A stretch of 64,000 bases of DNA. Source: an uncultured virus (IMG/VR IMGVR_UViG_3300005099_000288). Taxonomy: Duplodnaviria; Heunggongvirae; Uroviricota; Caudoviricetes. Of the stretch, positions 13,600 through 37,457 are shown piece after piece. The notes beneath the pieces were generated by a model. It was not told the DNA's origin. It saw nothing but the letters and a program-made list of their open reading frames with translations, and ran no database searches. The stretch is from the IMG/VR virus record IMGVR_UViG_3300005099_000288. One strand, given 5' to 3'. The position numbers and the translations under genes were made by a program. Position 1 is the first letter of the stretch. The number at the start of each line of letters is the position of its first letter.

Positions 13600-13606
13600 T
13601 GTAAAA

Positions 13607-17142: not shown

Positions 17143-17334
17143 CTAAGATCTCAGTAATCCTGCGAGTAATGTCAAAATTACCATGATCATCAACCATCGA
17201 TTCCACTTAAGCTCTTTTGTTAAGGCTCTCAACTGGCAGTTTGTATCCTTGAGACACAGAAATACGAATTGTCTAAACTCTTTGTCGCCCATATTACGGA
17301 CATCGTCTAAAGAGATTTTCTCGAAATCCACCAT
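17143..17334 (-). CDS. small protein with C-terminal TM helix
   Basis: Coiled segment followed by WLMIMVILTLLAGLL. Confidence 0.6.
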   Translation of the reverse strand: MVDFEKISLDDVRNMGDKEFRQFVFLCLKDTNCQLRALTKELKWNRWLMIMVILTLLAGLLRS

Positions 17335-17379: not shown

Positions 17380-18435
17380 TTATTCTTTTCTTTCAACACA
17401 GAGGATATGATCTCCAAATTCCGTTGGTTTGTAGAATAAAGTCACATCTCTATTAGAAAACGGCATTAAATTTACTGAATAAGTATCGACTTCAGTACCA
17501 TCTTCAGTTAATCTAAGATCGAACAGATCAGACGAAAACCCTGCATTCTTGACATTAACTTCTACGCGACATACTTCTCCTATAACGACTTGTTCAGGCC
17601 ATTTGATACTCATAACAATTTCTGGAGGAAGTTTTATCGAAATACTAGGTTTATACAGGAGATATCCTGAAGCACCACACATCTCGAATGTCGAAATCCC
17701 ATCACTACTAAGAATATTATAGCAATCTTCGGTTGAAGTATCATAAGAACACGAGAATCCCTTAAGTAATTCCTTTCCAGTAGACACTAGATCTGATCTA
17801 TATCCCCAAGTACAATATGGAGGAACCAGAAATCCGAAAAGTAGCGGACCGTATAATACATTTTCGCCTTTATAAATAGTTATTCCTGTAGAGTTACAAC
17901 CCTCACGACACTCAGAAGTACCTACACATCCAAAACTTGGTATTCTTAAAGAATACCATTCTCCGAGAGTTATATTATATGATACCGTCTCTTTCATGTT
18001 ATATTTTGCACTCCAATTAAGAGTAGTTTCAATTGAAACCGGGTCAGTATCAGGTACTTCGATGTGATCCCATGTAACCCAAATATGTCTAGAGTCGCTA
18101 CTACCTGGATTCCCTGTATACTGAGCATTACCACAGTAAGGATCTCCTACAGGATGATATTTTTCAGGAATAATATAGGAGACGTCGAATGAAACATTTA
18201 TCGTATTACTCTTTATTGTCAAACCTACAATGCCATTATAGTACAAGAGTCCAATAAATTTGTCTCCTTTCCATACTTCAAATTGTACAGTCCTTTTTCC
18301 TGTATCATAATCAGTTCTGATTGGTACTCTTAGTTTTATTGTATAATCTGAGATAGGAACATTCCAACTCCAATAACTATAATATGTATCAGGTCCTACA
18401 TATGCGATTTCAGGACAAGGATTGTTAAGTATCAT
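17380..18435 (-). CDS. beta-rich surface protein with C-terminal CARDB/Ig-like domain lacking its last strand (putative fibre tip)
   Basis: VEVNVKNAG...YKPTEFGDHILCVE ends right after the F strand. Confidence 0.6.
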   Translation of the reverse strand: MILNNPCPEIAYVGPDTYYSYWSWNVPISDYTIKLRVPIRTDYDTGKRTVQFEVWKGDKFIGLLYYNGIVGLTIKSNTINVSFDVSYIIPEKYHPVGDPYCGNAQYTGNPGSSDSRHIWVTWDHIEVPDTDPVSIETTLNWSAKYNMKETVSYNITLGEWYSLRIPSFGCVGTSECREGCNSTGITIYKGENVLYGPLLFGFLVPPYCTWGYRSDLVSTGKELLKGFSCSYDTSTEDCYNILSSDGISTFEMCGASGYLLYKPSISIKLPPEIVMSIKWPEQVVIGEVCRVEVNVKNAGFSSDLFDLRLTEDGTEVDTYSVNLMPFSNRDVTLFYKPTEFGDHILCVERKE

Positions 18436-18438
18436 CGT

Positions 18439-19065
18439 TCAGCTGTAACTTACAGAAACACAAATTTCTTTACTACCAGTTCCACAATAGTATGCATCCG
18501 TGTGGAGATACCCCGTTTTTGTTATAGTTTCATCCGGATCTAGATAGAACGAATACTCATTGAAGGTAGTTCCGTTACAAGTAAACCTCAATTCTACGTA
18601 CGCTGAAGCTCCTCCTGTATTCTGTAATGTACAATAAACGTAGACGGTTTCTCCTAACATCGCAGTATCTTTATTCAGGTGAAAATCGGTTATTATTACT
18701 TCAGGTTCTGATGGAGCAGTTACTTTAACACTTCTCGAATCGTAACAATCAGTCCCAGAATAACTCGGACATCCATGTTCTCCATACGCAACAAGGGCTG
18801 CTATTTTCACTGTATAATATCCTTCAGATGCAGTAGACTTACATCGATAATCTGCCCATGCTAAATAACTATCTGCAGGTATGCACACTGTACTCTTAGC
18901 TATGAACTCAAATGCGTCTGAATCTGCGTATGGTGAAAGATAATAGTTTTTTGCATTATATATCCATAGTGACAGTCGAATCTCGTCTCCTGGTTCTATA
19001 TTTACGTCTGGATAATAACCGCCTTTCGTTTTGTTATATATTTTGAGCTCTCCCGTGTAACACAT
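18439..19065 (-). CDS. two-Ig-domain surface protein (CARDB-like) with incomplete C-terminal domain
   Basis: GETVYVYCTLQNTGG...LDPDETIT...KEICVSVSYS at the end. Confidence 0.6.
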   Translation of the reverse strand: MCYTGELKIYNKTKGGYYPDVNIEPGDEIRLSLWIYNAKNYYLSPYADSDAFEFIAKSTVCIPADSYLAWADYRCKSTASEGYYTVKIAALVAYGEHGCPSYSGTDCYDSRSVKVTAPSEPEVIITDFHLNKDTAMLGETVYVYCTLQNTGGASAYVELRFTCNGTTFNEYSFYLDPDETITKTGYLHTDAYYCGTGSKEICVSVSYS

Positions 19066-19095
19066 ATCGCATCCTCCTGTATTCCCCCAAATTTA

Positions 19096-19452
19096 TTACG
19101 ATTTCTTCTCACCTCTGAGTAATAACAAAGCTCCGACTCCACCCAGTCCTGCCAACGTTAACAAGACTTTCTTGGAAACTGGTTTAGAGGGGACCTCAGA
19201 TTCTAATGTGACAGACACCGTCTCGGTCTCTCCTTCTTCGACTGTTATTGTACCAGTTTCTTCCTTATATCCTTCTAAGGTTAATTTCCACGTATGTTCT
19301 CCTGGATCTACTGCAATTGTTGCAGGAGTTACCATTCCTGTATCGTTTCCATCAATAAAAATCGCAGCTCCTTCAGGATCTGAGGTAAACTCAATGTAGC
19401 TTTTAACTTCTTGCGTTACGATCAGAGTCGCACATTTCTTCATCTCTCCCAT
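19096..19452 (-). CDS. PEGA-domain membrane-anchored protein
   Basis: TSDPEGAAIFIDG...TPATI...PGEHTWKLTLEGY is a PEGA motif; C-terminal TM helix. Confidence 0.8.
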   Translation of the reverse strand: MGEMKKCATLIVTQEVKSYIEFTSDPEGAAIFIDGNDTGMVTPATIAVDPGEHTWKLTLEGYKEETGTITVEEGETETVSVTLESEVPSKPVSKKVLLTLAGLGGVGALLLLRGEKKS

Positions 19453-19466
19453 CGAGATCCACCTTT

Positions 19467-20174
19467 CTAATAGTGTACATTATCTACGACAAAACATATT
19501 TCATAAGTTCCTTCCTCTGATGGAGCTGTTAACGACAAAGAATCACTTATTTGATCTACTGTAGTCAGTTCTGTCGAGCTCTCTGGAATCTCAGTTCCAT
19601 CTATTTCCCAGTGTCCTTCAACAGTGATGGGAATCGCAGCATCTGAAGGTAATTCATTAGTCAATGTCACTTCGGCATTAAATGATCCTCCAATGTTCAC
19701 AGTATCAGGATCTATTCGGACATTTAAGCTGTACTCGTAGTCGTATATCAAGACTTCACCTACTAGATCTCGAGTTGGAAAACTGAAATTGGTTCCGTCG
19801 CACAATTGCCCTGTGTCAGTCCAAGCATGAACTCTTCTGTCAAGTCCACATAAATCTTGATCTACTGTAAATGTGCTAGAGTAGACATATGCCATATCAA
19901 GAGGATCTATACAATCAGACCATGCATAACCTGCGTTTAGCACAGAATTCCCTTCGGCGTCTCTTATTTCAAAATGAACTCCAACCTTTACTTCGGTACT
20001 GGAGTCATTCTCTGCTGTCACTCTGATTCGATATGTCTTTCCTCTGTACAAGTTCGTTGTCGCCTCTCCTGTATCTACATCGACAACTTCGATATTTCTA
20101 ATATAAATCTGTGGTGCAACTACTGTTAAAGAAACACATTGGCTACCCTGTAAAACAGGTCCCATTTTTAACAT
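19467..20174 (-). CDS. tandem Ig-fold surface protein with N-terminal extra strand
   Basis: N-terminal SQCVSLTV; two beta-sandwich repeats; ends TAPSEEGTYEICFVVDNVHY. Confidence 0.6.
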   Translation of the reverse strand: MLKMGPVLQGSQCVSLTVVAPQIYIRNIEVVDVDTGEATTNLYRGKTYRIRVTAENDSSTEVKVGVHFEIRDAEGNSVLNAGYAWSDCIDPLDMAYVYSSTFTVDQDLCGLDRRVHAWTDTGQLCDGTNFSFPTRDLVGEVLIYDYEYSLNVRIDPDTVNIGGSFNAEVTLTNELPSDAAIPITVEGHWEIDGTEIPESSTELTTVDQISDSLSLTAPSEEGTYEICFVVDNVHY

Positions 20175-20779: not shown

Positions 20780-21679
20780 TTACACCTCAACCTCAAAAAT
20801 TTTGCCATCCGAACCTGCTTGTCCATTTCCACAACCAGAAGTACCTCCATTTCCCCCTGAAACATCAATGTTCCCCGTTCCACTCTTCGTTATATAGTTC
20901 AACACTACCAAACCACCAGCACCCCCACCACCACCAGCTCTCTTTTGATAAGTTCCATTCGTCCCGTTTTCTCCATTTTCGCCCTTTGCTTCAATAGTTC
21001 CATTGTTTACTAGGTTCTTGGCAAAAATATAAATTGCACCTCCACCAGCTCCACCATCTCCCGGTAATCCAATAACTTGACACGTGCCACTCTCACCAAC
21101 GCACTCGCAATATCCATCACCACCACCGCCACCCGCACCAGCATTAGGAAAGTTACACCATTCACAATAACCAACGTGATTTTTTAAAGCACGCAGCTTC
21201 TCATCATTTCCAGCACCACCAGCTCCAGGATTCGAGGAACTGCAATAGCTGTAATGTCCACCAGAGCCTCCAGCTATTAAGCCATCTTCACCAGAGAGAC
21301 CACTTTGACAAATACTACAATAACAACCGCAAGAACCACTTCCAACACCACCACCACTCCCTCCTTTCCCTGTCATAGATATCTTTCCATTGTTGGTGAG
21401 AGTATTTTTCACATAAATTATCAATACTTTTTTATCTGAAGTTACGGTGACGCCAGAGTCTATTGTGAGATTATTGTAGTACATAATTTTGTTTATAGTG
21501 CAGTTAGCAGATATGGTAACGTCTCCGTCTGAACCGTCTCCAAACAATCCACCTGTAGATTTAAGTTCGCTGGCGTCTTTACCATCTACCTTGTCAGCAT
21601 CATCAGCTTTTCCATCTAAATCTAAGTCTAACATAGCGGGGTAAACAGTTTTAGTCGTTCCTGCTCTTTTGATTTTCAT
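20780..21679 (-). CDS. glycine-rich fibre/receptor-binding-like protein
   Basis: FGDGSDGDV and GGAGGGAIYI...NNGTIEAKGENG glycine-rich repeats; N-terminal DLDGKADDADKVDG. Confidence 0.7.
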   Translation of the reverse strand: MKIKRAGTTKTVYPAMLDLDLDGKADDADKVDGKDASELKSTGGLFGDGSDGDVTISANCTINKIMYYNNLTIDSGVTVTSDKKVLIIYVKNTLTNNGKISMTGKGGSGGGVGSGSCGCYCSICQSGLSGEDGLIAGGSGGHYSYCSSSNPGAGGAGNDEKLRALKNHVGYCEWCNFPNAGAGGGGGDGYCECVGESGTCQVIGLPGDGGAGGGAIYIFAKNLVNNGTIEAKGENGENGTNGTYQKRAGGGGGAGGLVVLNYITKSGTGNIDVSGGNGGTSGCGNGQAGSDGKIFEVEV

Positions 21680-22661: not shown

Positions 22662-23369
22662 CTATTCATAAATGATTACTATATTGCCTTTAAACTTACT
22701 TAATAGTGCTTGGCTGGTTGAAATATCATATACATATAGTCTAACAGCTAATATAGATGATATGTCTGTATCAGAAATTGTAAATTTCAAAGTATTATCC
22801 CTCCATACTTTGTATGTTCCATACTTCCAATAAAATTCGACAAGGTAATATGTATTCGCTGACAAATCAACAGATTCTATAGCTTGCTGAGTTTGAGTTC
22901 CAGATATATATTTACCACATAAGAAATCTTGTGCACTATTAGAAAGATTAAACCTTACAAAATAATAATCAGGTGGATTAATCTCTGTAGAACCATCCGC
23001 ATTACATAAATGTATATCTGTTCTATAGTTAACAGAATATACTGGATTTACTCTTAAAATTAAATAGACTTTAGTTGCACTTGTTGGTAAATTCCAATAC
23101 ATCCATGATTTTCCAGCAGCAGAATCACTTCCTCCTATAATAGTCAACTCCTGTGAATTAGAACTTATATTCCCTGCTACAGCCTCAACCAAGTCAGCAC
23201 TGTTTAGCACCTCATTCATGCTTGAAGTTGCTATTAAAACTTTTGGGTCGGAGAAATTTTGCAAAACTTCTTGCCTAACGCCAGCTAACCGTGATGCTTT
23301 CCAGTCTATTACGTTGTCTTCGTCTGTGTCATATACATTCTTCAACATCCACTTTGGGTGATACGTCAT
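22662..23369 (-). CDS. beta-sandwich virion protein with MTYHPK adaptor N-terminus
   Basis: Paralog of 21689..22396; its N-terminus is shared with 24196..24822. Confidence 0.65.
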   Translation of the reverse strand: MTYHPKWMLKNVYDTDEDNVIDWKASRLAGVRQEVLQNFSDPKVLIATSSMNEVLNSADLVEAVAGNISSNSQELTIIGGSDSAAGKSWMYWNLPTSATKVYLILRVNPVYSVNYRTDIHLCNADGSTEINPPDYYFVRFNLSNSAQDFLCGKYISGTQTQQAIESVDLSANTYYLVEFYWKYGTYKVWRDNTLKFTISDTDISSILAVRLYVYDISTSQALLSKFKGNIVIIYE

Positions 23370-23764
23370 CTCTTCAACACCACATACCCTAATGCTAATA
23401 AGGGAATTGCTACTAATAGTTTTGAAGGTATTTGAGCTGGTGTAGGTGTTGTTGGAGATGTTGGAGTTATTTTTGTTAAATCTACAGATGCTTTCATCCA
23501 GTTTGGTGTTTTGTTTGGTGGTAGTGTTATTTTAGTATCATTTATTACGACGTATTTTTCAGTGTCAACGTTTCTGTAGTAAATATCAATTCTATCTGCG
23601 TCTATGTTTGGAAAGTATTCTCTAGGATTGCTGGAACTCCACGTTTCTCTGCTTTCGTCATAAGGTTTTATGGCTTTTAGGTACTCATCACCTTTATAAA
23701 ATAGAACTGAAACCGTGCACAAATCTCCATAGTCATCTTTAGAGTTAAAAGACATTTTCAGCAT
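23366..23764 (-). CDS. membrane-anchored protein, paralog of 23770..24174
   Basis: DIYYRNV-TEKYV-INDTKITLPPN is shared; Pro/Thr linker and C-terminal TM. Confidence 0.7.
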   Translation of the reverse strand: MLKMSFNSKDDYGDLCTVSVLFYKGDEYLKAIKPYDESRETWSSSNPREYFPNIDADRIDIYYRNVDTEKYVVINDTKITLPPNKTPNWMKASVDLTKITPTSPTTPTPAQIPSKLLVAIPLLALGYVVLKR

Positions 23765-23769: not shown

Positions 23770-24174
23770 TCACCTCTTCACAACTATATAACCTAAAGCT
23801 AATAAAGGAACTGTCGCCATCAAAATTTTCCCAGCCTTCTGAGATACAGAAGGTGGTGTTGGAGTAATCTCTGCTAAATCTACCGACACACATGCCCAAT
23901 CGTCAGGAATTTCGTTCGGAGGTAGAGTTATCTTTGTATCGTTGATTATAACATATTTCTCAGTCTCCACGTTTCTATAGTAAATATCGACATGATCCGC
24001 ATCTATATTCAACTGATACTCCTTTGGATTATCTCTGTTAAAAATGTCACCTCTTTCTTCGTCATAAGGACTTATTGTCATTAGGTAATTGTCGTCTTTG
24101 TAAAATATTGCGAGAACTGTACACACATCTTCTGTGCTACTGTCTGTCCCAAAGTATACTCTTCTGACTAACAC
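23770..24174 (-). CDS. membrane-anchored protein, paralog of 23366..23764
   Basis: Same shared motif; ends VPLLALGYIVVKR. Confidence 0.7.
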   Translation of the reverse strand: MLVRRVYFGTDSSTEDVCTVLAIFYKDDNYLMTISPYDEERGDIFNRDNPKEYQLNIDADHVDIYYRNVETEKYVIINDTKITLPPNEIPDDWACVSVDLAEITPTPPSVSQKAGKILMATVPLLALGYIVVKR

Positions 24175-24195: not shown

Positions 24196-24822
24196 TTACA
24201 TTATATACCAATTCGTTCCATCACTAATCAAAGTGTATGACTGATACTGAGTGTCAATTGTTAGAGATGAAGCTCCGTCGATTGTCTCTGAACCACTTGG
24301 ACTGATAGTTACTGTATTTGTAGAGCTGTCAGTCTTTTTAACGCCGACCTTACCACCACTTGAAGGTGATGGCAAGGTTATGGTAACTGCACCACCTGAA
24401 GCGTCAACTAAAACGAACTCGTTGTTGCTTGCTGTATAGTCTGAAGATTTTGATACAACAGACCAGCTTGCCATTAATTCAGACGCTGTATATCCACCAA
24501 CAGTTGCTGCGTCAATACCTAAGGCATCATGAGTTGCTTTATTATGGTCTGTCAGTAGGTTTGCACAGGTGTTTGGTAGGTCATCAGCTCCTAATACACT
24601 GCACCCAGATGATAAGGTTTTATTCTTTAAAGTTTGGCTTTCGTCAGTGAACACTATTGAACCAGTCCCAAGTGCGTCGTGTGTTGCTCTGTCGTGGTCT
24701 GTCAAAACAGTTGCACAGGTATTTGGAATATCAACGCCGTCTACCATATCTGCATCGTCTACTTTACCGTCTTCGTTTGTGTCATATTCTGTTTTTAACA
24801 TTCTTTTTGGGTGGTATGTCAT
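24196..24822 (-). CDS. fibre-like protein (start reassigned to MTYHPKRM)
   Basis: GAGGTGA RBS; internal repeat PNTCA--LTDH--ATHDALG x2; C-terminal VDASGGAVTITLP domain. Confidence 0.7.
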   Translation of the reverse strand: MTYHPKRMLKTEYDTNEDGKVDDADMVDGVDIPNTCATVLTDHDRATHDALGTGSIVFTDESQTLKNKTLSSGCSVLGADDLPNTCANLLTDHNKATHDALGIDAATVGGYTASELMASWSVVSKSSDYTASNNEFVLVDASGGAVTITLPSPSSGGKVGVKKTDSSTNTVTISPSGSETIDGASSLTIDTQYQSYTLISDGTNWYIM

Positions 24823-24848
24823 TTCTTCACCTCTTATTTTTTTACATT

Positions 24849-25832
24849 TTATAATATATACCAATTACTACCATCTGAGTATAAATAATATGACTCATAT
24901 TGAGTTGAAATTGTTAGCGAAGATAAACCATCTATTTTTTCTGTTGCGTTTGGATTAATAGTTACTGTGTTTGTAGAACTATCTATCTTTTTAACAGCAA
25001 CTCTTCCTGACGACACAGGTGCTGGTAAAGTTATTGTTACTGCTCCTCCAGACGCATCTACAAGAACAAACTCATTATTTGAAGCGTTGTAATTTCCTGT
25101 TTTTGTTATTACATTAAATTTAGGCATATAGAGAGTGTCTAAAATTTCTTTTGTGACTGGAGTTGAAAGTCTGCTTCTAATATCACCCTGATAATATACC
25201 CTAACCGTTGTTGAAGAACCCCCCGATTCATATCTTGAATATAACTTCAAAACAAGTCTGCTTCCAGAAGCCATAACATAATCATCTGCAAGTATCAAAG
25301 AAATTATGACATCCCTTCTTGAATCTACCTTGTCACTGACCATTGACTCATCGATTAGAACCTCACTGTTATCGGATTTTCTTTCATATAATCTGTAAAA
25401 TAATCTTACATCTATATGACCACTTATTACCTCTGCTTGACAATGAAATTCATAGACACCGAGTTTTAGAGGAATATCACTCGTAGGAGTTATCCATGAA
25501 GCAATTTCATAATCTCCAGCACTATTCTTTGTTATTTCAACATAAGCCTCTGAAAGTTCTGGAACAGTAAGACTCATTGATTTGTATGCTGGAACATCTC
25601 CATCTGCTGCATCTAACAAGAAATAGTTTATACCAAGTCCAACGACAGATGTATCAACATAAATCTTTCTCGCCACGTCGTAAGGCTCTGTTGGTTCTCC
25701 AAGACCTTTGATAACATAATCTCCCCAATCCTTATTAGCATCAACAACTAATTTACTTAATCTCGGTGATTTAGCAAGTTTGTAACTTATAGGGTCAAAA
25801 GGCATAACAATCACCTCATAAGTATTGTCCAA
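24849..25832 (-). CDS. fibre-like protein sharing its C-terminal domain with 24196..24822
   Basis: YNASNNEFVLVDASGGAVTITLP...SDGSNWYI. Confidence 0.7.
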   Translation of the reverse strand: MDNTYEVIVMPFDPISYKLAKSPRLSKLVVDANKDWGDYVIKGLGEPTEPYDVARKIYVDTSVVGLGINYFLLDAADGDVPAYKSMSLTVPELSEAYVEITKNSAGDYEIASWITPTSDIPLKLGVYEFHCQAEVISGHIDVRLFYRLYERKSDNSEVLIDESMVSDKVDSRRDVIISLILADDYVMASGSRLVLKLYSRYESGGSSTTVRVYYQGDIRSRLSTPVTKEILDTLYMPKFNVITKTGNYNASNNEFVLVDASGGAVTITLPAPVSSGRVAVKKIDSSTNTVTINPNATEKIDGLSSLTISTQYESYYLYSDGSNWYIL

Positions 25833-26542
25833 GCACTAACAGTTACAGCATAACTACCATCTAAATTTACAACTTGTATTCTTATGTTGTCTGAAAATAT
25901 AGGAACTAATATAGTTCTTTGTCTAGTTTTTCCTGCTGAAAAGGTTAAATCTTCATAATTACCAGCACTTTCAGCATCTTCAGGTGAATCATAATCAGTT
26001 CCATTTGGAGAATACAACCACCTTACTCTAACCCCTGATGTAGCTGATGAGTTATATGTTGCTTTGACAATAACAACCATAGCTGAATAACCATCAAGTC
26101 CTGATTTATCAATATTAGTGCTACCACCAGCAGAAATAGAATACGAACTCAAATCTTGCGTAGGTGTTGACCTTATCGGTCTCAATGCGTCTCTGAATTC
26201 CGAAAGTTTTATATCAAGTTGATCCAGTATAGACAATAACGCTGTTAGTTCTCCTGCTGCTCCAAATATACGATACTTAGATGTATTATCAGGAACAGTG
26301 GACCAGTTTGCTGCTACAGTCAAAGTGTCGGCAGTATTCGACGATATTTTTCTTATCTGACCTTTTCCTGTTCCGTCTGTTATTTCTACATAAGTATCAA
26401 CCCATATATCAGTTCCCCAGTTCTTTGCACTATCAGTTAGAGTATTCGACGTAGCAGAAGAAACAGTCCCTGAATCAAGACCATACTCTACTTTCTGTGT
26501 CAGGATATCCTTCAACTCTCGGAGTGGATAATATATAGTCAT
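25811..26542 (-). CDS. virion structural protein (beta-rich)
   Basis: ITDGTGKGQIRKISSNTADTLTV...W--PDNTSKYRI is a motif typical of viral structural proteins. Confidence 0.6.
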   Translation of the reverse strand: MTIYYPLRELKDILTQKVEYGLDSGTVSSATSNTLTDSAKNWGTDIWVDTYVEITDGTGKGQIRKISSNTADTLTVAANWSTVPDNTSKYRIFGAAGELTALLSILDQLDIKLSEFRDALRPIRSTPTQDLSSYSISAGGSTNIDKSGLDGYSAMVVIVKATYNSSATSGVRVRWLYSPNGTDYDSPEDAESAGNYEDLTFSAGKTRQRTILVPIFSDNIRIQVVNLDGSYAVTVSAWTILMR

Positions 26543-26543
26543 T

Positions 26544-26666
26544 TCAATCCCTCGCCATGACTAATCCTACTACTGAGACTCCGACTATTCCAACCATTAA
26601 TGGTATCATCTTTGGAATTTTCTCTTTCGCTTCTTCTACACGTAAATACCAAGATACTGTATCCAT
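26544..26666 (-). CDS. 40-aa membrane-anchored peptide with N-terminal beta-strand (not in ORF track)
   Basis: MDTVSWYLRVEEAKEKIPKMIPLMVGIVGVSVVGLVMARD; TAATG overlap with the upstream gene. Confidence 0.65.
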   Translation of the reverse strand: MDTVSWYLRVEEAKEKIPKMIPLMVGIVGVSVVGLVMARD

Positions 26667-26983
26667 TATGGTTCCACCGTCAATTTTAACTTATATATTC
26701 CAGGTTCCTCGAAGGTACTTGTAGATATTATCAGATCACTCACTTCACCTACATCTAGCTCTACCTCGCCTGTATCGAGGACTTTAATCTCAGTATCTTC
26801 TTCGTCTACTATGGAAACTTTCCAAGTGAAAATCCCTGGTGCGTCACCAGCATTTTGAATCTTGAACATACACAATTCTACCTCTCCCAAAGTATCAGAC
26901 AAAGTTGTCGGATGAAAATAAACAATATCTCCCCATGGCAGACCCATATAAGCTACCTCCATCTCCCAAGATCTAGTATCCAT
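26666..26983 (-). CDS. single CARDB/Ig-fold protein with N-terminal extra strand
   Basis: MDTRSWEMEV...FKIQNAG...ELDVGE...EPGIYKLKLTVEP. Confidence 0.65.
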   Translation of the reverse strand: MDTRSWEMEVAYMGLPWGDIVYFHPTTLSDTLGEVELCMFKIQNAGDAPGIFTWKVSIVDEEDTEIKVLDTGEVELDVGEVSDLIISTSTFEEPGIYKLKLTVEP

Positions 26984-26987: not shown

Positions 26988-27125
26988 TCAACCTCTTAAC
27001 CCTCCTAAATAGAATATCATAAATTCTTTCCCGCACTTTGGACACTTCAGACGAGTCTCTGACACTTCTACTTCCCACTGATGCTTACATTGGGGACATC
27101 CTACCATTTTTTTCTTTTCATCCAT
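26988..27125 (-). CDS. 45-aa zinc ribbon (not in ORF track)
   Basis: CPQC...CPKC. Confidence 0.6.
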   Translation of the reverse strand: MDEKKKMVGCPQCKHQWEVEVSETRLKCPKCGKEFMIFYLGGLRG

Positions 27126-29081: not shown

Positions 29082-29564
29082 CTATTTCAAGGTCAAAAGA
29101 CTCCTGGAATGACTAACAAACTCCTCATTGAAAAAAACAAGATCTACAACTTTTTCTGTAGGGAATTCTCCAAACTTAAGATGAGGATCAGTAGTCTCGA
29201 GCTTTATCAATTCTCCGTTCAATAACAACTCCACATAAGCGTGAAACGACCTCCTGTTAGGCAAATAACACGCAACAACCCAAGAATCATACCCAGAAGC
29301 TCTCAAAAGAGAACATAATAACAAAGATTTGCAAATACAATTCATAGATTTCCCAGACTTTATCGATTGCGAAGGCTTAAGCCACCCCTCTCTCAAACAT
29401 GTTTCTTGAGTACAACACCAAACTGAATAAGGAATATCCCTAACATATTCATAAAATGCAACTGGATCATAATTTAAAGCTTCTGCAAGTCTCTTAACCT
29501 CAGGATCATCTGGTGTGACGAATTCTTTAACTTTTTCAAGTGGATAGTGATCTAAATATATCAT
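29082..29564 (-). CDS. transglutaminase-like cysteine protease
   Basis: NCICKSLLLCSLLRASG...HAYVE...LETT gives a Cys-His-acid triad. Confidence 0.75.
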   Translation of the reverse strand: MIYLDHYPLEKVKEFVTPDDPEVKRLAEALNYDPVAFYEYVRDIPYSVWCCTQETCLREGWLKPSQSIKSGKSMNCICKSLLLCSLLRASGYDSWVVACYLPNRRSFHAYVELLLNGELIKLETTDPHLKFGEFPTEKVVDLVFFNEEFVSHSRSLLTLK

Positions 29565-30226
29565 AAGGCACTCACCATCCTAACAATCAGTGATCCAATA
29601 GAACCCAGAATTCCTAATCCTATAATTTCTCTGTATCCTTCCAAATCTGTATACACATAAAGACCAGGAATTCTTACAGCATCCACGTATTTTTTTATTA
29701 CAAAATCATCACAACCAAAACCTGTACATCTGTCAAATGAAACTCTAGATAACAAATCCAAAATATATTTACTACGATAAGACGTACACATTGCAGGACA
29801 GTGTGGTCTTAGATCTGCAAGTTTTTTCCATACATTCACAGCAATATTAGCATTCAGAGGTTTTCTCTCTGCACAAATTGCATTTATGTCAGGATTTGCA
29901 TCAAAAATGTCTCTTATAACACCAAAATAATCAAGAGTAACAATACAATCTGCATCTAAATTACAAATTACATCTCCTTTTGACCTATAAATACCGAGTT
30001 CTCTGTTAAGACCAATACTTTGGACATTTGAAACCAAAACCTTGCACCCAAATTCTTCTGCAATTTCTACGGTATTATCGGTCGATCCACTATCGACAAT
30101 TATTACTTCATAATCATCTCCTGAATTTTCCAAAGATTCAAATACCGTACCTAAACACCACTTAAAAATTCTATCTGCTTCGTTATATGTTGGAATGACA
30201 ACACTGAGCATTATTAACCCCCGCAT
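29561..30226 (-). CDS. GT2 glycosyltransferase with C-terminal TM
   Basis: SVVIPTYNE, IIVDSGSTDNT, LDADC. Confidence 0.9.
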   Translation of the reverse strand: MRGLIMLSVVIPTYNEADRIFKWCLGTVFESLENSGDDYEVIIVDSGSTDNTVEIAEEFGCKVLVSNVQSIGLNRELGIYRSKGDVICNLDADCIVTLDYFGVIRDIFDANPDINAICAERKPLNANIAVNVWKKLADLRPHCPAMCTSYRSKYILDLLSRVSFDRCTGFGCDDFVIKKYVDAVRIPGLYVYTDLEGYREIIGLGILGSIGSLIVRMVSAL

Positions 30227-30229
30227 GTA

Positions 30230-31132
30230 CTATTCTAGGAGTGCCTTTGGAAGTTCTTTCGGAATCTCAGAAAGACCCTTAATCCAGCGATACATTAGAA
30301 AAATCCCAAATCCTACTGCAGAAATCACGAGCCCAGTCCTCAAATACTCAGCGCTCTTCGAAGGAATAATGTTCAATTTCAAAGAATTTGAGTGAATGTC
30401 AAATGCATGGGATCTATTACACTTTGCGCTAACAACGGTTTTTCCACCGAGTATTAGATAGGTCGGCAGGGGTCTAGCTAGAATATCTGCAGGAACCGTA
30501 TTAGAACCTTCCACTAACGATGCAACTTCTTCATCTCCTAACCATGTTTTCTTGATTAGTTGTATACCACGATCACAGGTGATATCAGGAGCTTTTTCCA
30601 CGAAGAATTCGATATTTTCATCTGCATAATATTTTGTTTTGTCAGAAGATAAATTTAAGCCCGAAACGTATATAAGTTTTATTGCCTTACGAAACTCTTT
30701 ACCTGTATAATTACCAGTTGAATCTCTAGCCCATACCCTAGCATGCCAATATGTATAATCTGGCAAACAGTCATTACCTGTCGTTTCCCAACGACCATGC
30801 CAGGTACCAGATTGTCCAGGGTATAACAAACTCTCTGTGTGTTCCCACATCCCAGTACAATGTACTCCTTCTTGTATACAATCAGGTAAAATATATTCAT
30901 CCCAATAATCTTCTGGATCACAACTTAACTTTACACATGGAGGTTTGTTTGTCTTAACTCCTCTTTCAGTATACAATTGAACATAAGGGGTAATACTAAG
31001 AGTCTCACTAGAATTATTCGTTATCGTTAATGTATATGTTGCAACTCTTCCTACCCTAATTTCTTTCTCGTCAAAACTGAAATCTACGGAAACCTCATCT
31101 ATCGCAGACAACAATGAATACTGCTGCATCAT
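30230..31132 (-). CDS. membrane-anchored beta-rich surface protein
   Basis: Ig-like strands (YTLTITNNS, LYPGQS), Cys pairs, C-terminal TM. Confidence 0.6.
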   Translation of the reverse strand: MMQQYSLLSAIDEVSVDFSFDEKEIRVGRVATYTLTITNNSSETLSITPYVQLYTERGVKTNKPPCVKLSCDPEDYWDEYILPDCIQEGVHCTGMWEHTESLLYPGQSGTWHGRWETTGNDCLPDYTYWHARVWARDSTGNYTGKEFRKAIKLIYVSGLNLSSDKTKYYADENIEFFVEKAPDITCDRGIQLIKKTWLGDEEVASLVEGSNTVPADILARPLPTYLILGGKTVVSAKCNRSHAFDIHSNSLKLNIIPSKSAEYLRTGLVISAVGFGIFLMYRWIKGLSEIPKELPKALLE

Positions 31133-31135
31133 TCT

Positions 31136-31681
31136 TCACCTCAATATTATTCCGACAAGAGTTCCCATAACTATTGAAGTTACAATTGTCCTAAATTGAG
31201 GTTCTCTCCACTTAGAAAGATCTTCTGGCAAAGTACCTGCTATATACGATCCCAATATCGGTAGTCCTATCGACACTAGCAAAACCGATCCTAGAGACCT
31301 CTTACTCTCTTCTTCTGTCTCCTGTTTTGGATCTATTACGAATTTAGCTTTACTGAGTAATTTTACAATATCTGAGCCAAAACTCCCAAAATCTGCATCC
31401 AAATCAACAATATCCCAGGATTTATTCTCGAGATTGTATACTTCCACCCATGCTCTATCTCCTTTTCTGGCAACTGCTGCTAAATATGGCAGACCTCTCT
31501 GAGCCATTGCATTTACAACTGCTGCATATACATATGGTTCCGACCCAACAGAAGATTTCACAAGTTCAAAAGCAGTTTTTAAAGGATCTGATGAATTCAA
31601 TGCTTTCTCTGCAAGTTCCTGAACTCCAGGATCATCCTTTGACAAAACCCACATTTGTTTTATTTTCATAGAACTCACCAT
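31136..31681 (-). CDS. membrane protein, possibly degenerate transglutaminase fold
   Basis: DDPGVQELA...RAWVEV...IVD resembles 29082..29564 without the catalytic Cys/His; two C-terminal TMs. Confidence 0.5.
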   Translation of the reverse strand: MVSSMKIKQMWVLSKDDPGVQELAEKALNSSDPLKTAFELVKSSVGSEPYVYAAVVNAMAQRGLPYLAAVARKGDRAWVEVYNLENKSWDIVDLDADFGSFGSDIVKLLSKAKFVIDPKQETEEESKRSLGSVLLVSIGLPILGSYIAGTLPEDLSKWREPQFRTIVTSIVMGTLVGIILR

Positions 31682-31746
31682 TTAAAAATTTGCAATACTA
31701 CTATTTAAAAATTTTTCCTTGTAACTTTAGAACTTTAACTAACACC

Positions 31747-31923
31747 TTAACTTTTCTTAATCCAATTCCAGGCAGTAGAATTAACCTTGTAAAAATCAAC
31801 CAATTTTTTAACCAAACCAACATTTGTCTTAAGATTCATAGTATCTCGTATCTCAACAAATTCTCTAGCCAGATCTCCTCTCAATTTCACTGAAACCTCC
31901 ATATTATCACTTTTATCTACCAT
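31747..31923 (-). CDS. 58-aa RHH-like protein (not in ORF track)
   Basis: VSVKLRGDLAREFVEIR...TNVGLVKKLVDFY. Confidence 0.4.
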   Translation of the reverse strand: MVDKSDNMEVSVKLRGDLAREFVEIRDTMNLKTNVGLVKKLVDFYKVNSTAWNWIKKS

Positions 31924-31953
31924 AACACTTTTGATCTATTGTCCGTAACTCCT

Positions 31954-32655
31954 TTAAAAATTTTCCTCTCTCCTAATTCGATCATATAATTTAGAAAAAG
32001 TCCCCTCTTCGACACACTTATACACGAAATTCCAAGTAAAACCCCTATTATGATCAGAATTTCTAAAATACACTACACGATCTACATACCTTACACTGTA
32101 TTTTTGCAACAACTTTACAATTATACGCTGATCTAAATAAGGACCAGGACAAACAGATTTGTGAATACCTCTCAAAAATTTAACTCTCCACACACCGCCA
32201 CCAATATACCAATTAGCGTCTTCCGGATTTACTATAATTTTAGGGTTTATAACCGAAACACGATCTCTCCCAGGTTTCCTCACTATTGAATTTCCGTAAA
32301 CCAAAAAATCCTTATGTAGTGGAATCCCCTCTTCAATTATCTCTGCAGTGTCTCCGATTAAAAAATCTGTGTCTCTACAAAAACGTATCCACTCCGTATG
32401 AGAAAGGTCAACAATGTCACCATAACCAAGTTCTTCTTCGAAAAAATTTTTAGAAGGAACTAAATAGAATGTCGAAACTTCAGAAATTTTTTCGAGAGGC
32501 TTAATGATTTCTCTAAATTTTTTAGCTAAATCTCCTGAGATTCTCCTGCTAATTCCGAATATAAATCTCTCAGGTGTCTGCAACTTCAAATACTCTACAC
32601 AACGCTCAAATAACGCATCCACTCTCGAAACCAATACACCAATACTAAAATTCAT
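31954..32655 (-). CDS. GT-A fold glycosyltransferase-like protein
   Basis: N-terminal strand FSIGVLV; DTD (DxD) motif; located in the glycosylation cluster. Confidence 0.5.
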   Translation of the reverse strand: MNFSIGVLVSRVDALFERCVEYLKLQTPERFIFGISRRISGDLAKKFREIIKPLEKISEVSTFYLVPSKNFFEEELGYGDIVDLSHTEWIRFCRDTDFLIGDTAEIIEEGIPLHKDFLVYGNSIVRKPGRDRVSVINPKIIVNPEDANWYIGGGVWRVKFLRGIHKSVCPGPYLDQRIIVKLLQKYSVRYVDRVVYFRNSDHNRGFTWNFVYKCVEEGTFSKLYDRIRREENF

Positions 32656-33607
32656 CTGAAATCTCCTCCAAACACTTTGAAATTATCTTCTTAATATTAG
32701 AGCGATCAAAGAATTTTCCTCTTGAATCACACGTATTTCTAGATTTAGACAAAATACTACTCCAATCTATATCATCCAATGTCCAGAAATATACTCCGCA
32801 ATCCCCAACTTCCTCTTTCGACGCTTCAGTCATTCTAACTACTGGGATACATCCAGCATTCATTGCCTGTGCTAAATATACACTAAAACCTTCTTCTCTG
32901 AAAAAATCTAAATATGCTCTTGATTTTCCCATCACTTCAGCTAATTCTTCAGGTGCAAGATTATAAAAACACCTTACTCCATAATTATAAGATAACTCTT
33001 CTAAAATCTCTCTGTGTCTATCCTCTTTTACAGTAGAAACCACAGCACCAACAATTTTATTTTTATAACACATTTTAGCAAAGTCCCTAAATCTTGGAAA
33101 ATCTTCAAATCTCCCACAAACTACCACATCCATAGAACGTTCATGGGATTTCTTGGTCCTAAACATACTGTAATTATACGGAGGATAAACAACCTTTGCT
33201 TTAAAAAGATCTGCAGGATCTAAGCGTTTCTTCCTAGCCTCAGAATCACACCAATAAAAGACATCCCCACTGCCATATATCGCAGATCCATAAAACCAAT
33301 ATACTAAAACAGGGACCTTAACTTGAAACACAAAAATCGGATGCGGAACCATCAACAAATCATACATATAAACTGGAGGAATACTACCAGAACCTATATT
33401 GTGGTAAAATTTCAGATCCTTCCATTCTAAACACTCAACAGAGTGGAATCTAAACAGATCCCTCTTCAGTTTAATTTCACACCTCTTAAATTCTGTTACG
33501 ATCTTCACGTGATACCCCAGTTCTTTAAAACAATCTGCAAACTGTACCATAATACCATCTAAACCTGTAAATTTAGATATATCCTCGACCAATACTCCAA
33601 TATTCAA
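32645..33607 (-). CDS. GT4-family glycosyltransferase
   Basis: EEGFSVYLAQAMNAGCIPV. Confidence 0.75.
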   Translation of the reverse strand: MNIGVLVEDISKFTGLDGIMVQFADCFKELGYHVKIVTEFKRCEIKLKRDLFRFHSVECLEWKDLKFYHNIGSGSIPPVYMYDLLMVPHPIFVFQVKVPVLVYWFYGSAIYGSGDVFYWCDSEARKKRLDPADLFKAKVVYPPYNYSMFRTKKSHERSMDVVVCGRFEDFPRFRDFAKMCYKNKIVGAVVSTVKEDRHREILEELSYNYGVRCFYNLAPEELAEVMGKSRAYLDFFREEGFSVYLAQAMNAGCIPVVRMTEASKEEVGDCGVYFWTLDDIDWSSILSKSRNTCDSRGKFFDRSNIKKIISKCLEEISDEF

Positions 33608-34638
33608 AGTATCATCTCCGAATATAATTTTTTGATAAGCTCAGCTCGTTCTTTCCAAGAAAACCAACGTTCTGCAAAATTTTTCGCTTCAGTCCCTATT
33701 ACGCTTCGTTCTCCTGGACTTTCATATAAAAATTTTAAAAGACCTGCCAAATCCACCTCATTTGAAGTTTTTAGATAATGAAACCCCCTATGATAGAACG
33801 ATTCTATTTTCCTATATATTTCTTCTATTGGCTCTAGCGAAAATACTAATTCTCTAACTTTATCCAAATCTCGATAATCTACAGTCTGTAAAAATCCCAA
33901 ATCCCTTACTATTGAGGGAATACCGAAAGCTGCAGCTTCCATCATAGTATTTAAAAAAACTTCTGCTGCAGAGAATGATACAACGACGTCCGAAATTGAA
34001 TAAAATTGTCTCATCCTATCATAAGGGACAGGTGTCATAAAACTAATATTTCTATATCCCAGAAACTTCCAAACCCCCTTAAAATCATCAACTACCACAA
34101 TTATACGAACACCTTTTGGTACCTTTTCTAAAAACTTGACCAAACCGTACATTGTAGTATCAGGATCTTTCCACAACGAAGTCCCTTGAGGATACAAAAT
34201 TGTAAAAACACCATCATCTTCTTTTTTCCTATCTGCAATTTCAACTCCGTTAGGAACCAAAAAAACTCTAGAGAAGTCCCAATTTGGGTTATTTGCATAC
34301 AAAATATAATACAAAGAAGGATCTACAACAATTACAGGTCCCTTCTCCGTAACTTTCTCAAGATTGAACCAAACATAACCTGAAGGATGTAAATAACCTG
34401 GAACATAATCTTCAATCTGAAAAATAATCGGTGTTTCTGAGTCGTACTCTGCCAATTCCAAACATGGGGTTATAATAAAATCAACTCCTTCAAAATGTTC
34501 TTTCTTTAAATTTCTTCTATAAACTAGATCTACTTCGCATCCTAATTCCCTAAATCCAGATATACACCCAACTAAAGAATACTCTTCATTGAAGTTTATA
34601 TCGTCCCACCAAATAAGTCTAACCTTCATTACTATCAC
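33604..34638 (-). CDS. GT4-family glycosyltransferase
   Basis: VPNGVE, S-AEVFLNTMMEAAAFGIP, FSWKE. Confidence 0.8.
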   Translation of the reverse strand: MIVMKVRLIWWDDINFNEEYSLVGCISGFRELGCEVDLVYRRNLKKEHFEGVDFIITPCLELAEYDSETPIIFQIEDYVPGYLHPSGYVWFNLEKVTEKGPVIVVDPSLYYILYANNPNWDFSRVFLVPNGVEIADRKKEDDGVFTILYPQGTSLWKDPDTTMYGLVKFLEKVPKGVRIIVVVDDFKGVWKFLGYRNISFMTPVPYDRMRQFYSISDVVVSFSAAEVFLNTMMEAAAFGIPSIVRDLGFLQTVDYRDLDKVRELVFSLEPIEEIYRKIESFYHRGFHYLKTSNEVDLAGLLKFLYESPGERSVIGTEAKNFAERWFSWKERAELIKKLYSEMIL

Positions 34639-35533
34639 CCACTAATTCCAGATACTTTTTAGAAATTTCATAAACATCAAATTTTTCGATCTCATCCCTA
34701 GATTCCTCAGCAACTTTCCTATAGTGATCATAATCCTTAAAAAGTCTTTCCAGAATTCCAAAACCCGTAACCTCTACTACTGGAACTCCCAATGCCATCG
34801 CTTCTAATTCAAAAATCGGACACCACCCCCTATACAAACTCAGCATTCCCTTCGATGTTGCAATTTTATACAAAAAATCCATATGATTACCGTAAATAGA
34901 TGAAATATTCATGTCTAACAACCGAGCAATTTCTCCTAATTCCCTACGAGTATAAACAATTAATTCTGTAGAAGGATCCAATCTCTTGACTGAAACAAAG
35001 ATATCTCCAAGAACTTTCCGACAAGCACCTCCTACAACAATAAAGGTATTTCCCCTCGGAAATACCCTAACAGATCTCAATTTAGTGTAATCTATTGCAG
35101 GAGGTACTATAATTACTTTCTTTAACTTAAAAACCTTCCTTAAGCAATCTGCACTTTTTTTATCCAAAGCAATTACTGCATCAGATTTTTTCATTACCAA
35201 CAATCTCTCTCCAAAACCTCTCGAACCAACTGGATTTTCAGAAACAATATAAAAAACTTTTACAATCCTACGCAAGTTCTCGAGTTCTCTAACTAATGCA
35301 TTAGAAGTCGAAAAAATGAAAAGTCCTCTTAAATTCAAGGACTCTACTAATTCAACAAAACTCTGAGACGGAAAATAAACCTCGCAATTTCCGATCTTAG
35401 ACTTAATATTTCTGGTAGACACGTCCGTCCTTATCAAATCACTGTGAATTAGGGGGGTCTCTAAATACTGAGCTATAACATTTGCTAAATAAAAAGTTCG
35501 GCTACCTACACTGTTTAAATCTACGACAATCAA
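34619..35533 (-). CDS. GT4-like glycosyltransferase
   Basis: IVPPAID, LEAMALGVPVV. Confidence 0.65.
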   Translation of the reverse strand: MIVVDLNSVGSRTFYLANVIAQYLETPLIHSDLIRTDVSTRNIKSKIGNCEVYFPSQSFVELVESLNLRGLFIFSTSNALVRELENLRRIVKVFYIVSENPVGSRGFGERLLVMKKSDAVIALDKKSADCLRKVFKLKKVIIVPPAIDYTKLRSVRVFPRGNTFIVVGGACRKVLGDIFVSVKRLDPSTELIVYTRRELGEIARLLDMNISSIYGNHMDFLYKIATSKGMLSLYRGWCPIFELEAMALGVPVVEVTGFGILERLFKDYDHYRKVAEESRDEIEKFDVYEISKKYLELVGDSNEG

Positions 35534-35538
35534 TCATT

Positions 35539-36564
35539 TTACACCCCCAATGAGTTGACTATTTTCTTAATATCTTCCTTTATGTGTTTCTCTATGGGTT
35601 TAGGTTCTCCTAATAATTCGAAGAATTTTCTATTATCAAATCTGTAAAAATCCGTCTCTGGTTCTATCCTCGGGTTCTTAATATGAACAATTTTTGGTTC
35701 TTTATCTGTAAACTTCGACACAAATTCTACAATTCTATTAGCAACATCTATTATTCTGGCTTGATATGTCAGCTGATTATATACCCTGAAATCTTTGCCC
35801 TCCAACAAAATTGCCTTAATTACCGATTCTGCGAAATCCTCTAAACTGATAAATGGTTTAAACTGCTTCCCAGATCCATAGATTGTGAGCGGTTTGTCTG
35901 TTAACGCAAAATATACCATTCTATTGTAAAATGTTCCAAAATACGGATCTATATCAAACCTGGTTTCTGGATCAAATCCGAAAACTATACTAGTCCTAAG
36001 ATCAATGAAATCATCCAGCCATCCCTTACGATAGAACAAATAACAATTTTCTACATCGAACCCCTTACTTAAATGATACACAGATCCTGCTAGGTTAGGG
36101 TGCATCACTCCGTCTTCATAAAATCCCTCTGGGATTACATTTCCTTTAGCTCCTATTCCATATATACCAGTCGTACTTGTATAAATCAATCTCGGTTTTT
36201 CAGACATTTTTCGTATATACCACAGAATTCTCAGAGTAGACATTAGGTTGTTAGTCAGAGTAAAATTCGCTCTATCCAGAGTAGACTCCGAATAAGGCGC
36301 AGACGGCTGAGCTGCTAAATGAACTATTACGTCAGGTTTAACATCCCATAAAAAGTCCGAAAAATGATCTGAAGTTATGTCCATTGCTACACACGAGGAC
36401 CTCCACGGTGGTTCATGTAATGGGGTTCCTCCAACCTCTTCTACCCAATCTCTCCTATATCCTGAATCTATTTCTATTACTTCATCGAATAGATTTTTAT
36501 CTTCCAAAACTTTAGACAAATAACGCCCTGTATAGCCATCTGCTCCAGTTATCAAAACCTTCAT
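35539..36564 (-). CDS. sqdB: UDP-sulfoquinovose synthase (SQD1/SqdB/Agl3-like)
   Basis: GADGYTG, QPSAPYS, YHLSK, RFDID-YFGT--NR, PLTIYGSGKQ, FRVYNQ and NPRIE are diagnostic SQD1 motifs. Confidence 0.85.
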   Translation of the reverse strand: MKVLITGADGYTGRYLSKVLEDKNLFDEVIEIDSGYRRDWVEEVGGTPLHEPPWRSSCVAMDITSDHFSDFLWDVKPDVIVHLAAQPSAPYSESTLDRANFTLTNNLMSTLRILWYIRKMSEKPRLIYTSTTGIYGIGAKGNVIPEGFYEDGVMHPNLAGSVYHLSKGFDVENCYLFYRKGWLDDFIDLRTSIVFGFDPETRFDIDPYFGTFYNRMVYFALTDKPLTIYGSGKQFKPFISLEDFAESVIKAILLEGKDFRVYNQLTYQARIIDVANRIVEFVSKFTDKEPKIVHIKNPRIEPETDFYRFDNRKFFELLGEPKPIEKHIKEDIKKIVNSLGV

Positions 36565-37457
36565 TTTTCATCTCTCTCCTTCAAAGATTTATATATCTCC
36601 ATAGTTGCAGAAATCCCCTCTTCTAAGTTCACTTTAGGGATAAACTTGTAAAATGCCTTGATCCTAGAAATATCTGCATAGATACCTTCTATTTCTCCTG
36701 GCTCTGGTGACACATATTTTACGCCATACTTATTTTCGAATATCTTTGCAAGATCTACTATTTTTGTAGGAACTCCTGTTCCAACGTTATACAATCCAGG
36801 AACTGGATCTTCTATAACTTTGGAATTTAGATCCACTACATCACTTATGTAAATGTAATCTCTTACAGCATTGGGGTTTCTAATAGGTAATGGCTTACCT
36901 TCTACTGTACATCTAGTAAAAATCCCTATAACGTTGTCCCATTTCAATGGACCGTAAATATTAAACCATCTGAAAATAACATAAAGTAGCTTATATTTCT
37001 TCGCATAACGCCTAATGTACTCTTCTGCTGTGAGTTTACTGAAACCGTAGAAAGAAGTAGGACACGGTACCATAGTCTCCTTTGCTTTCCAGTTTACCAC
37101 TTCTCCGTAAATAGCAGAGGTCGAAGCAAAAACTATTCCTTTAACCTTTTTCCTTACCATATAATTAAGAACATTCAATGTCCCAACTACGTTTTGTATA
37201 AAATCGTACATTGGATCCTTCATAGAATCTATTACTTTTGTCTGACCTGCCAAATGTATAACCCAATCCACAGATGGAACGTCTCTGAAGGTTCTGGCAC
37301 TTGTAACATCTCCTTCTATAAAAGTAGCCCCTGCTATACGATCTACTTTGTTCGTTGCCTTATTGTCAACTATATAAACATCATAACCCTGGTCAACTAA
37401 TTTAATAGCAGTATGAAACCCTATGAATCCAAGGCCTCCTGTAATAAGTACTTTCAT
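36561..37457 (-). CDS. NAD-dependent epimerase/dehydratase (GalE-like)
   Basis: TGGLGFIG, STSAIYG, YGFSK, FNIYGP. Confidence 0.9.
   Translation of the reverse strand: MKVLITGGLGFIGFHTAIKLVDQGYDVYIVDNKATNKVDRIAGATFIEGDVTSARTFRDVPSVDWVIHLAGQTKVIDSMKDPMYDFIQNVVGTLNVLNYMVRKKVKGIVFASTSAIYGEVVNWKAKETMVPCPTSFYGFSKLTAEEYIRRYAKKYKLLYVIFRWFNIYGPLKWDNVIGIFTRCTVEGKPLPIRNPNAVRDYIYISDVVDLNSKVIEDPVPGLYNVGTGVPTKIVDLAKIFENKYGVKYVSPEPGEIEGIYADISRIKAFYKFIPKVNLEEGISATMEIYKSLKERDEK

Follow-up and report, generated by a model that had tools for sequence, protein, structure and literature searches.

An Ig-like protein and a tail-anchored-type peptide encoded side by side in an uncultivated virus resembling those of ANME-1 archaea share an N-terminal motif that suggests docking by strand insertion

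Two adjacent genes of an uncultivated archaeal virus, which resembles the viruses of ANME-1 archaea, encode a 105-aa protein with an Ig-like core and a 40-aa peptide with a C-terminal membrane helix, and both products begin with nearly the same ten residues. By its sequence pattern, this shared segment suggests docking by strand insertion. The reading that we tentatively favour, and to which we give appreciably less than an even chance, is that the segment docks as a strand inserted in trans and so allows the peptide to tether the Ig-like protein to the cytoplasmic face of the membrane during assembly. Strand complementation of Ig-like subunits is already known from secreted pili and engineered tags. 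In the literature searched, we met no viral Ig protein without a signal peptide that has a membrane-anchored donor-strand peptide as its partner, which is not proof that none exists. We regard the pair as an interesting lead for which the evidence is thin. If the reading is true, the virus would have a very economical means of fixing a structural or adhesive module at a membrane, and an orphan gene pair, found in viruses that resemble those of methane-oxidising archaea, would gain a first clue to its function. It would also supply protein engineering with a compact natural peptide-and-domain pair. If it is false, what remains is an Ig-like accessory protein of the ordinary kind with a small membrane protein next to it.

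The DNA analysed here, referred to as the window, comprises 64 kb of a 78.6-kb contig. The pair and its immediate neighbours comprise the following features, given in window coordinates:

26988 to 27125, minus strand: upstream neighbour, a 45-aa zinc-ribbon protein that hits several zinc-ribbon models of Pfam with scores short of their cut-offs; also conserved in L001, a related contig (see below)
26666 to 26983, minus strand: the 105-aa ORF, starting MDTRSWEMEV and ending PGIYKLKLTVEP
26954 to 26983, minus strand: codons 1-10 of the 105-aa ORF, MDTRSWEMEV, its copy of the shared N-terminal motif
26674 to 26678, minus strand: GGTGG, a Shine-Dalgarno-like word 7 nt before the ATG of the peptide
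26664 to 26668, minus strand: TAATG, the stop/start overlap of the 105-aa and 40-aa ORFs, with the same junction in L001
26544 to 26666, minus strand: the 40-aa ORF (stop codon included), of tail-anchored type, full sequence MDTVSWYLRVEEAKEKIPKMIPLMVGIVGVSVVGLVMARD
26637 to 26666, minus strand: codons 1-10 of the 40-aa ORF, MDTVSWYLRV, its copy of the shared N-terminal motif
26556 to 26606, minus strand: hydrophobic helix of the peptide by hydropathy, codons 21-37, IPLMVGIVGVSVVGLVM
25811 to 26542, minus strand: downstream neighbour, a 243-aa fibre-like protein with 227 homologues, characterized by an AlphaFold2 (AF2) model and fold matches

These genes are tightly packed. The 243-aa gene begins 1 nt past the stop codon of the peptide, the small ORF exactly filling a gap of 123 nt, and the upstream gene stops 4 nt ahead of the 105-aa start. 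Together with the TAATG overlap, these intergenic gaps of 1-4 nt indicate that the pair is co-expressed with its neighbours. The GGTGG word, which sits within the final codons of the 105-aa ORF, is unchanged in L001, with the caveat that the same codons also encode an invariant LTVEP. The original prediction had named the two starts and proposed that translation of the peptide is coupled to that of the 105-aa ORF: the former were confirmed by reading the sequence, and the overlap on which the latter depends is present in both genomes. A fusion of the two ORFs by frameshifting was considered and rejected. The peptide lies in the -1 frame, but the junction GAA CCA TAA has no slippery heptamer, and a separate ATG followed by the motif is kept in the window and in L001.

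L001, a contig of 1,392 bases, is the sole related contig recovered in a metagenome scan, and it shows the gene order of the window, with a partial 163-aa gene, the zinc ribbon, the 105-aa gene, the small ORF and the 243-aa gene. Its version of the peptide has 39 aa, is 57% identical to that of the window over 37 aligned codons and differs from it by two in-frame indels (+2 and -3 codons). Synonymous sites are near saturation between the two genomes (pS 0.66-1.07), and for the peptide, pN is 0.236 against a pS of 0.656, i.e. dN/dS is about 0.18; the flanking genes have a pN of 0.11-0.20 and saturated synonymous sites. Because its position is conserved, its indels are in frame, its dN/dS is low and its helix and terminal RD are kept, we take the small ORF as a gene: judged by this one comparison, it is a real gene under purifying selection. 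The original prediction had hinged on its conservation, and in this respect it holds up. A search of protein databases for relatives of the peptide returned the window's own copy alone, and the known family comprises three Ig sequences and two peptide sequences.

The two ORFs are the only ones in the window that start MDT.SW. When the first ten residues of the peptide were compared with the 460 other ORFs that have 30 aa or more in the six frames, the 105-aa ORF was the best match among them, with 5 of 9 residues identical after the Met and a BLOSUM score of 27 (next-best ORF, 18). In an all-against-all comparison, 25 of 106,030 ORF pairs reach 5/9, some of them true paralogues, and chance pairs occur at this level when every ATG start is allowed; by itself, the match statistic is suggestive, not decisive. 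It is conservation that settles the question, and on the sequences at hand the match between the two ORFs exceeds chance. In L001, the counterparts start MDVRSWSMEV (Ig protein) and MDVVSWYLTI (peptide), and since the codons of Ser5 and of residue 3 differ among the four gene copies, the motif is maintained at the protein and not at the DNA level. Across the five known sequences, residues 1, 2, 5 and 6 never change and positions 3, 8 and 10 vary conservatively, giving the consensus MD-[TVI]-x-S-W-x-[ML]-x-[VI]; D2, S5 and W6 are invariant in all three known 105-aa homologues. Residue 3 is Thr in both proteins of the window and Val in both of L001, and this agreement, in two genomes only, may hint at matching within each pair. 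As read from the alignments, the conserved positions alternate (W6, M/L8 and V/I10, plus Y12 in the Ig protein), the arrangement expected of a β-strand that buries one face. The N-terminal segment of the 105-aa protein (residues ~1-17) is amphipathic, with W6, M8, V10 and Y12 on one face.

That adjacent and otherwise unrelated small proteins share their first ten residues only would also fit a sorting signal for a viral or host factor, or a site of cleavage or modification; N-terminal capsid-targeting sequences, for instance, are shared by internal proteins of phage T4. We consider such a signal very unlikely: the alternating hydrophobic pattern resembles a structural strand, a membrane-anchored peptide would be odd cargo for capsid targeting, and among the genes of the window none was recognised as coding for a protease or scaffold. 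Unlikely as well, if less so, is that the motif is a relic of a small local duplication, from which the second start site arose, in two proteins with unrelated functions, namely a cis-folded Ig-like decoration or adhesion domain and an independent small membrane protein, e.g. a holin-like protein or a host-membrane effector. A relic should have decayed, whereas the motif persists between genomes with near-saturated synonymous sites. Ig-like decoration domains are reportedly common on the structural proteins of tailed viruses, and the 105-aa protein resembles them as a small Ig-like module among tail and fibre genes. Such domains, however, are usually fused to a structural protein, while the 105-aa protein is free-standing, and its partner is a membrane peptide that copies its N-terminus. 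As for this partner, virus genomes commonly encode small membrane proteins with a single helix (PMC4641393).

The motif also has a faint echo in the upstream neighbour. Between its two Cys pairs, the 45-aa zinc ribbon carries Q-W-E-V-E-V-S, which resembles the S-W-E-M-E-V-A of the 105-aa protein; the corresponding strand in L001 reads E-W-K-V-G-V-T, and the likeness may be coincidence.

In the peptide, the motif is followed by a charged linker (EEAKEKIPK), one hydrophobic helix and the tail ARD, the composition of motif, linker and transmembrane helix that had been predicted. The helix at residues 21-37 has a mean Kyte-Doolittle hydropathy of 2.47, and the 19-residue window 20-38 scores 2.41; in L001, the helix spans residues 19-35 (2.50) and precedes the tail MTRD. 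A hydrophobic helix of at least 17 residues and the terminal RD are thus kept in both versions. By hydropathy, neither the peptide nor the 105-aa protein has a signal peptide: in the Ig protein, the best 10-residue window within the first 35 residues scores 0.72-0.75, which leaves no hydrophobic core, and no twin-arginine motif is visible in the sequence. The absence of a signal peptide, the single helix at the extreme C-terminus and the 3-residue tail are features of tail-anchored membrane proteins, although the peptide, at 40 aa, is far smaller than typical representatives. A holin, which would be encoded next to a lysin and have a charged hydrophilic C-terminus, is not apparent in it, given its 3-residue C-terminal tail and the lack of a lysin-type family among 35 neighbouring ORFs scanned against Pfam and PHROG; the lack of a lysin also speaks against the two proteins having unrelated functions.

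Four Lys/Arg residues lie ahead of the single C-terminal helix and one lies behind it, and we therefore infer that the N-terminus of the peptide is probably in the cytoplasm, bearing in mind that a positive-inside count on 40 aa is a weak predictor. With no signal peptide on either protein, this charge count would place both N-termini in the same compartment, where the pair can meet.

Further signal-less proteins with a single C-terminal hydrophobic helix are encoded on the minus strand, at 17143-17334 (a 63-aa ORF), 19096-19452 (a 118-aa PEGA-domain protein), and 23366-23764 and 23770-24174 (paralogues of 132 and 134 aa with a Pro/Thr-rich linker). So many proteins of the tail-anchored type in the structural arm of the genome hint at a membrane-associated assembly step or at a membrane-containing virion.

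The Ig-like core attributed to the 105-aa protein was recovered by AlphaFold2, which was given the three-sequence alignment and returned a moderate model (mean pLDDT 66) of a five-stranded sandwich ending on an edge strand. The strands lie within residues 36-105 (36-43, 50-59, 65-76, 81-87 and 98-104), and the pLDDT of 10-residue blocks is 80-87 over residues 41-80 and 69-78 thereafter. By contrast, residues 1-20 and 22-33 fall below 50; the N-terminal 33 residues are unplaced, and the protein's own N-terminus is not docked to its core. A CARDB domain, for comparison, is a sandwich of seven strands. The best match in a fold search was 3wnk (Z 8.3, rmsd 3.3, 87 residues aligned), with a Z-score that is common by chance, as are those of the CARDB domain 3idu (VIA; Z 6.4, rmsd 4.2, 83 aligned) and the CARDB-like 2l0d (Z 6.0, rmsd 3.6, 83 aligned). 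Foldseek yielded no match in the PDB reaching an E-value of 0.001, while look-alikes proposed by a language model include clusters with the CARDB name or family (scores 0.90-0.91). Among sequence profiles, no Pfam, PHROG or NCBIfam model was significant for the 105-aa protein. CARDB (PF07705) did not match it or its L001 homologue even at E-values up to 10, and PKD (PF18911) remained below its cut-off, matching residues 82-104 of the L001 homologue only (E 0.055, 14 bits against 27). By its modelled fold, the 105-aa protein thus appears to be a generic Ig/CARDB-like β-sandwich and not a demonstrable member of a named family.

The alignments bear on whether this sandwich lacks a strand. The C-terminal strand of the 105-aa protein, G-x-Y-x-L-x-L-T-V, is like that of the Ig-like CARDB and PKD domains, and the chain stops right after it, at what we take to be the second-to-last strand of these domains. 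The weak profile matches to PKD_4 and DUF6941 end 13-16 positions short of the model ends, and in the alignment with 2l0d, residues 16-105 of the model cover positions 1-90 of a 114-residue chain, with about 24 chain residues beyond the C-terminus of the model; all three alignments, weak as they are, leave 13-24 reference residues past the end of the 105-aa protein. The claim that the protein "ends at the F strand" thus agrees with the last modelled strand (98-104) and with the profiles that stop short, but it goes beyond what the sequence proves. The fold matches themselves are complete Ig-like domains, which counts in favour of insertion in trans. On the other side, the model has no obviously open groove and its fold matches are generic, which would suit a cis-folded domain unrelated in function to the peptide. 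The sandwich could also be complete with six strands, its own N-terminus filling the edge in cis; as reported in PMC6615685, FimA can alternatively fold into a self-complemented monomer.

Chain ends of this type recur elsewhere in the genome. At 17380-20174 on the minus strand, multidomain proteins of 351, 208 and 235 aa all terminate shortly behind a CARDB-like strand, G-x-(Y/H/E)-I-C-V, and positions 6-77 of the 101 positions of the Pfam CARDB model match residues 274-343 of the 351-aa protein. Because these three proteins do so, ending after a CARDB-like strand seems to be a habit of the Ig-like domains of this genome. The pair had been described as repeating the logic of the 17.4-20.2-kb region, and the parallel seems to extend to these chain ends; no shared N-terminal motif was seen there.

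Relatives of the 105-aa protein are few. A word-indexed search returned, besides the query, a single cluster (81% identity); the known homologues are 81-82% identical, and none was found beyond ~80% identity. When 1.84 billion representatives were searched exhaustively with a profile, 11 proteins reached E<=0.001, one of them the query. Seven of the ten others match best within residues 55-104, and of the six that were scanned against Pfam, four are PKD-repeat proteins, which match residues 74-104, i.e. the last strand motif. Searches with the Ig protein produced nothing in a scan of viral contigs, one locus (L001) in the metagenome scan, no match at E<=1 in a phage GenBank collection, a match at no better than E 0.05 in the five genomes reached through the loci, and a single match (E 0.52) among PDB sequences. 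There are no paralogues of it within the window either (best phmmer E-value 0.066).

Taken together, these features lead to the following tentative picture. The first gene would encode a soluble, signal-less Ig/CARDB-like sandwich with an exposed terminal edge strand and an extra amphipathic N-terminal strand; the second would encode a translationally coupled, tail-anchored mini-protein whose cytoplasm-facing N-terminus copies that strand. The shared strand would insert in trans, by β-strand augmentation or complementation, and the simplest acceptor would be the open edge of the Ig core itself, beside strand 98-104. The Ig protein's own strand may fill the edge of a neighbouring copy. In this way the peptide would hold the Ig protein, alone or as a short strand-swapped oligomer, at the membrane during the assembly of fibre or virion components. 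We favour insertion in trans because packing in cis only would hardly account for a second, separately encoded and selected copy of the strand that sits on a membrane stalk. Complex prediction for the 105-aa and 40-aa proteins, run without controls, gave scores of 0.46, 0.17 and 0.12 against a mark of 0.32, which count neither for nor against binding.

Such an arrangement invites comparison with donor-strand pilins (FimA/PapA, threads, cannulae and the Tat-dependent fimbriae or Tafi). As in these, an N-terminal extension of ~15 residues with alternating hydrophobics is present, and the Ig-like core of the 105-aa protein may lack its last strand. A separate anchor subunit is also proposed for the archaeal Tafi (10.64898/2026.09.13.751334). 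Unlike donor-strand pilins, the pair has no Sec, Tat or class III signal peptide and no sequence similarity to any pilin family; it is virus-encoded, in an operon of fibre genes, and its anchor is a bare strand and helix of 40 aa. In contrast to chaperone-usher pili, there is also no chaperone or usher gene among 80 ORFs of the window scanned against Pfam. An engineered counterpart of the proposed mechanism is the split Ig domain SpyTag/SpyCatcher, in which a short peptide provides the missing edge strand in trans and is locked by an isopeptide bond. The trans edge strand, here only proposed, would be the common element, and our pair shows no sign of covalent chemistry.

The original prediction had gone further, to a self-polymerising Ig subunit that builds a pilus-like homopolymer and a peptide that is its membrane-bound initiator or terminator strand. 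In such a model, subunits with an incomplete Ig fold would be joined head-to-tail through exchange of their N-terminal donor strands, and the peptide would provide the last donor strand, capping the free groove and anchoring the filament in the membrane. The arguments for insertion in trans apply equally to such a homopolymer, and chaperone-free archaeal donor-strand polymers do exist, namely threads, cannulae and Tat-dependent fimbriae. Even so, we judge it distinctly unlikely. Because both proteins lack a signal peptide, no surface pilus of the known kinds is to be expected, and no chaperone, usher, sortase or pilin-type genes were found by Pfam among the 80 window ORFs; no filament-forming chain was among the 50 fold matches listed, which does not exclude one. 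Given the missing signal peptides and the charge distribution of the peptide, any assembly would be located on the cytoplasmic or virion-interior side. A chaperone-free viral donor-strand system on that face of a membrane, with the peptide priming, capping or anchoring a chain of incomplete Ig subunits, is similarly improbable in our estimation; were it true, the peptide, hardly more than a donor strand with a membrane stalk, would be a natural membrane-bound counterpart of the engineered split-Ig tag. The donor-strand reading is structurally coherent on the model, yet an unproven proposal. What stands of the prediction is a real gene for a membrane-anchored peptide next to an Ig-like core whose N-terminus is unplaced in cis; the cell-surface pilus is unlikely.

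The strands might also dock onto a third partner instead of each other, for example another viral structural protein of the fibre or baseplate from the same operon. Parts of the genomic setting speak for this. The pair lies between structural genes, with gaps of only 1-4 nt, and can be placed in a fibre-gene cluster because the 243-aa gene and the next two genes are fibre-, baseplate- or tail-like. The model of the 243-aa protein (pLDDT 91) consists of an N-terminal β-domain, a long helix (residues 96-119) and a C-terminal jelly roll, which best matches the prophage protein XepA (Z 12.6, rmsd 2.2, 103 aligned); its N-terminal domain is 50% identical to part of a tailed-phage structural protein, many tail-fibre proteins are among its matches in a viral fold library, and the two genes after it match baseplate and tail PHROGs. 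Moreover, the same genome reuses N-terminal modules, in that two of its ORFs (22662-23369 and 24196-24822) begin alike with MTYHPK(W/R)MLK, 8 of 9 residues being identical; these, however, are true paralogues with longer similarity and not bearers of a ten-residue tag. No candidate acceptor was identified, and the pair is absent from six distant loci, so the jelly-roll gene does not need it. On balance, a third partner seems a serious but still rather unlikely option.

The six loci derive from a synteny analysis in which an alignment of 39 of the 227 jelly-roll homologues led to 8 loci, six of them with at least 1.4 kb of upstream sequence; L004 and L006 were left out, as they have too little. 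Neither the Ig-peptide pair nor ORFs starting MD[TVI]xSW were found upstream of the jelly-roll gene in any of the six. By this comparison of sequences, the pair is a lineage-specific accessory and not a core part of the jelly-roll module. The jelly roll itself, ~125 aa long, is conserved at roughly 50-75% identity across the 227 metagenomic proteins; many of these have only ~134 aa, and their N-terminal parts are variable. At several of the loci L002-L009, the jelly-roll gene is followed by a fibre gene starting M..FD.ISY.

On a larger scale, the genome has two arms. One, on the minus strand, carries structural and surface genes, and the other carries enzymes, i.e. a family B polymerase, a RadA-like ATPase, NrdD and its activase, thymidylate synthase, dCMP deaminase, asparagine synthase and an integrase. 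According to PMC9894754, this layout and several such enzymes have been described for large viruses of ANME-1 archaea. One homologue of the 243-aa protein is labelled Methanospirareceae archaeon. No capsid, portal or terminase families were recognised in the window, nor were Rfam families or tRNAs, and its promoter-like and terminator-like sites do not exceed those of shuffled controls. A search for sequencing runs that could show expression listed none.

The minus strand carries several other features of note. At least ten tandem paralogous ORFs of ~150-170 aa, most of them starting MTWY(V/I)(I/V) and none with a Pfam family, occupy 9233-15640 on the minus strand. The product of 20780-21679 (minus), 299 aa long and rich in glycine, contains numerous GGxGG repeats as well as Cys residues and matches phrog_13336 (E 1e-18). 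The two fibre-like proteins that start MTYHPK(W/R)MLK lie at 22662-23369 and 24196-24864 on the minus strand, provided that the second begins at an internal ATG at 24822; the TTG start listed for it at 24864 is probably too far upstream. Finally, glycosyltransferases, two NAD-dependent sugar epimerases/dehydratases and a transglutaminase-like protein are encoded at 29082-37457 (minus), within the structural arm, and this block of glycosyltransferases and epimerases suggests glycosylation directed by the virus.
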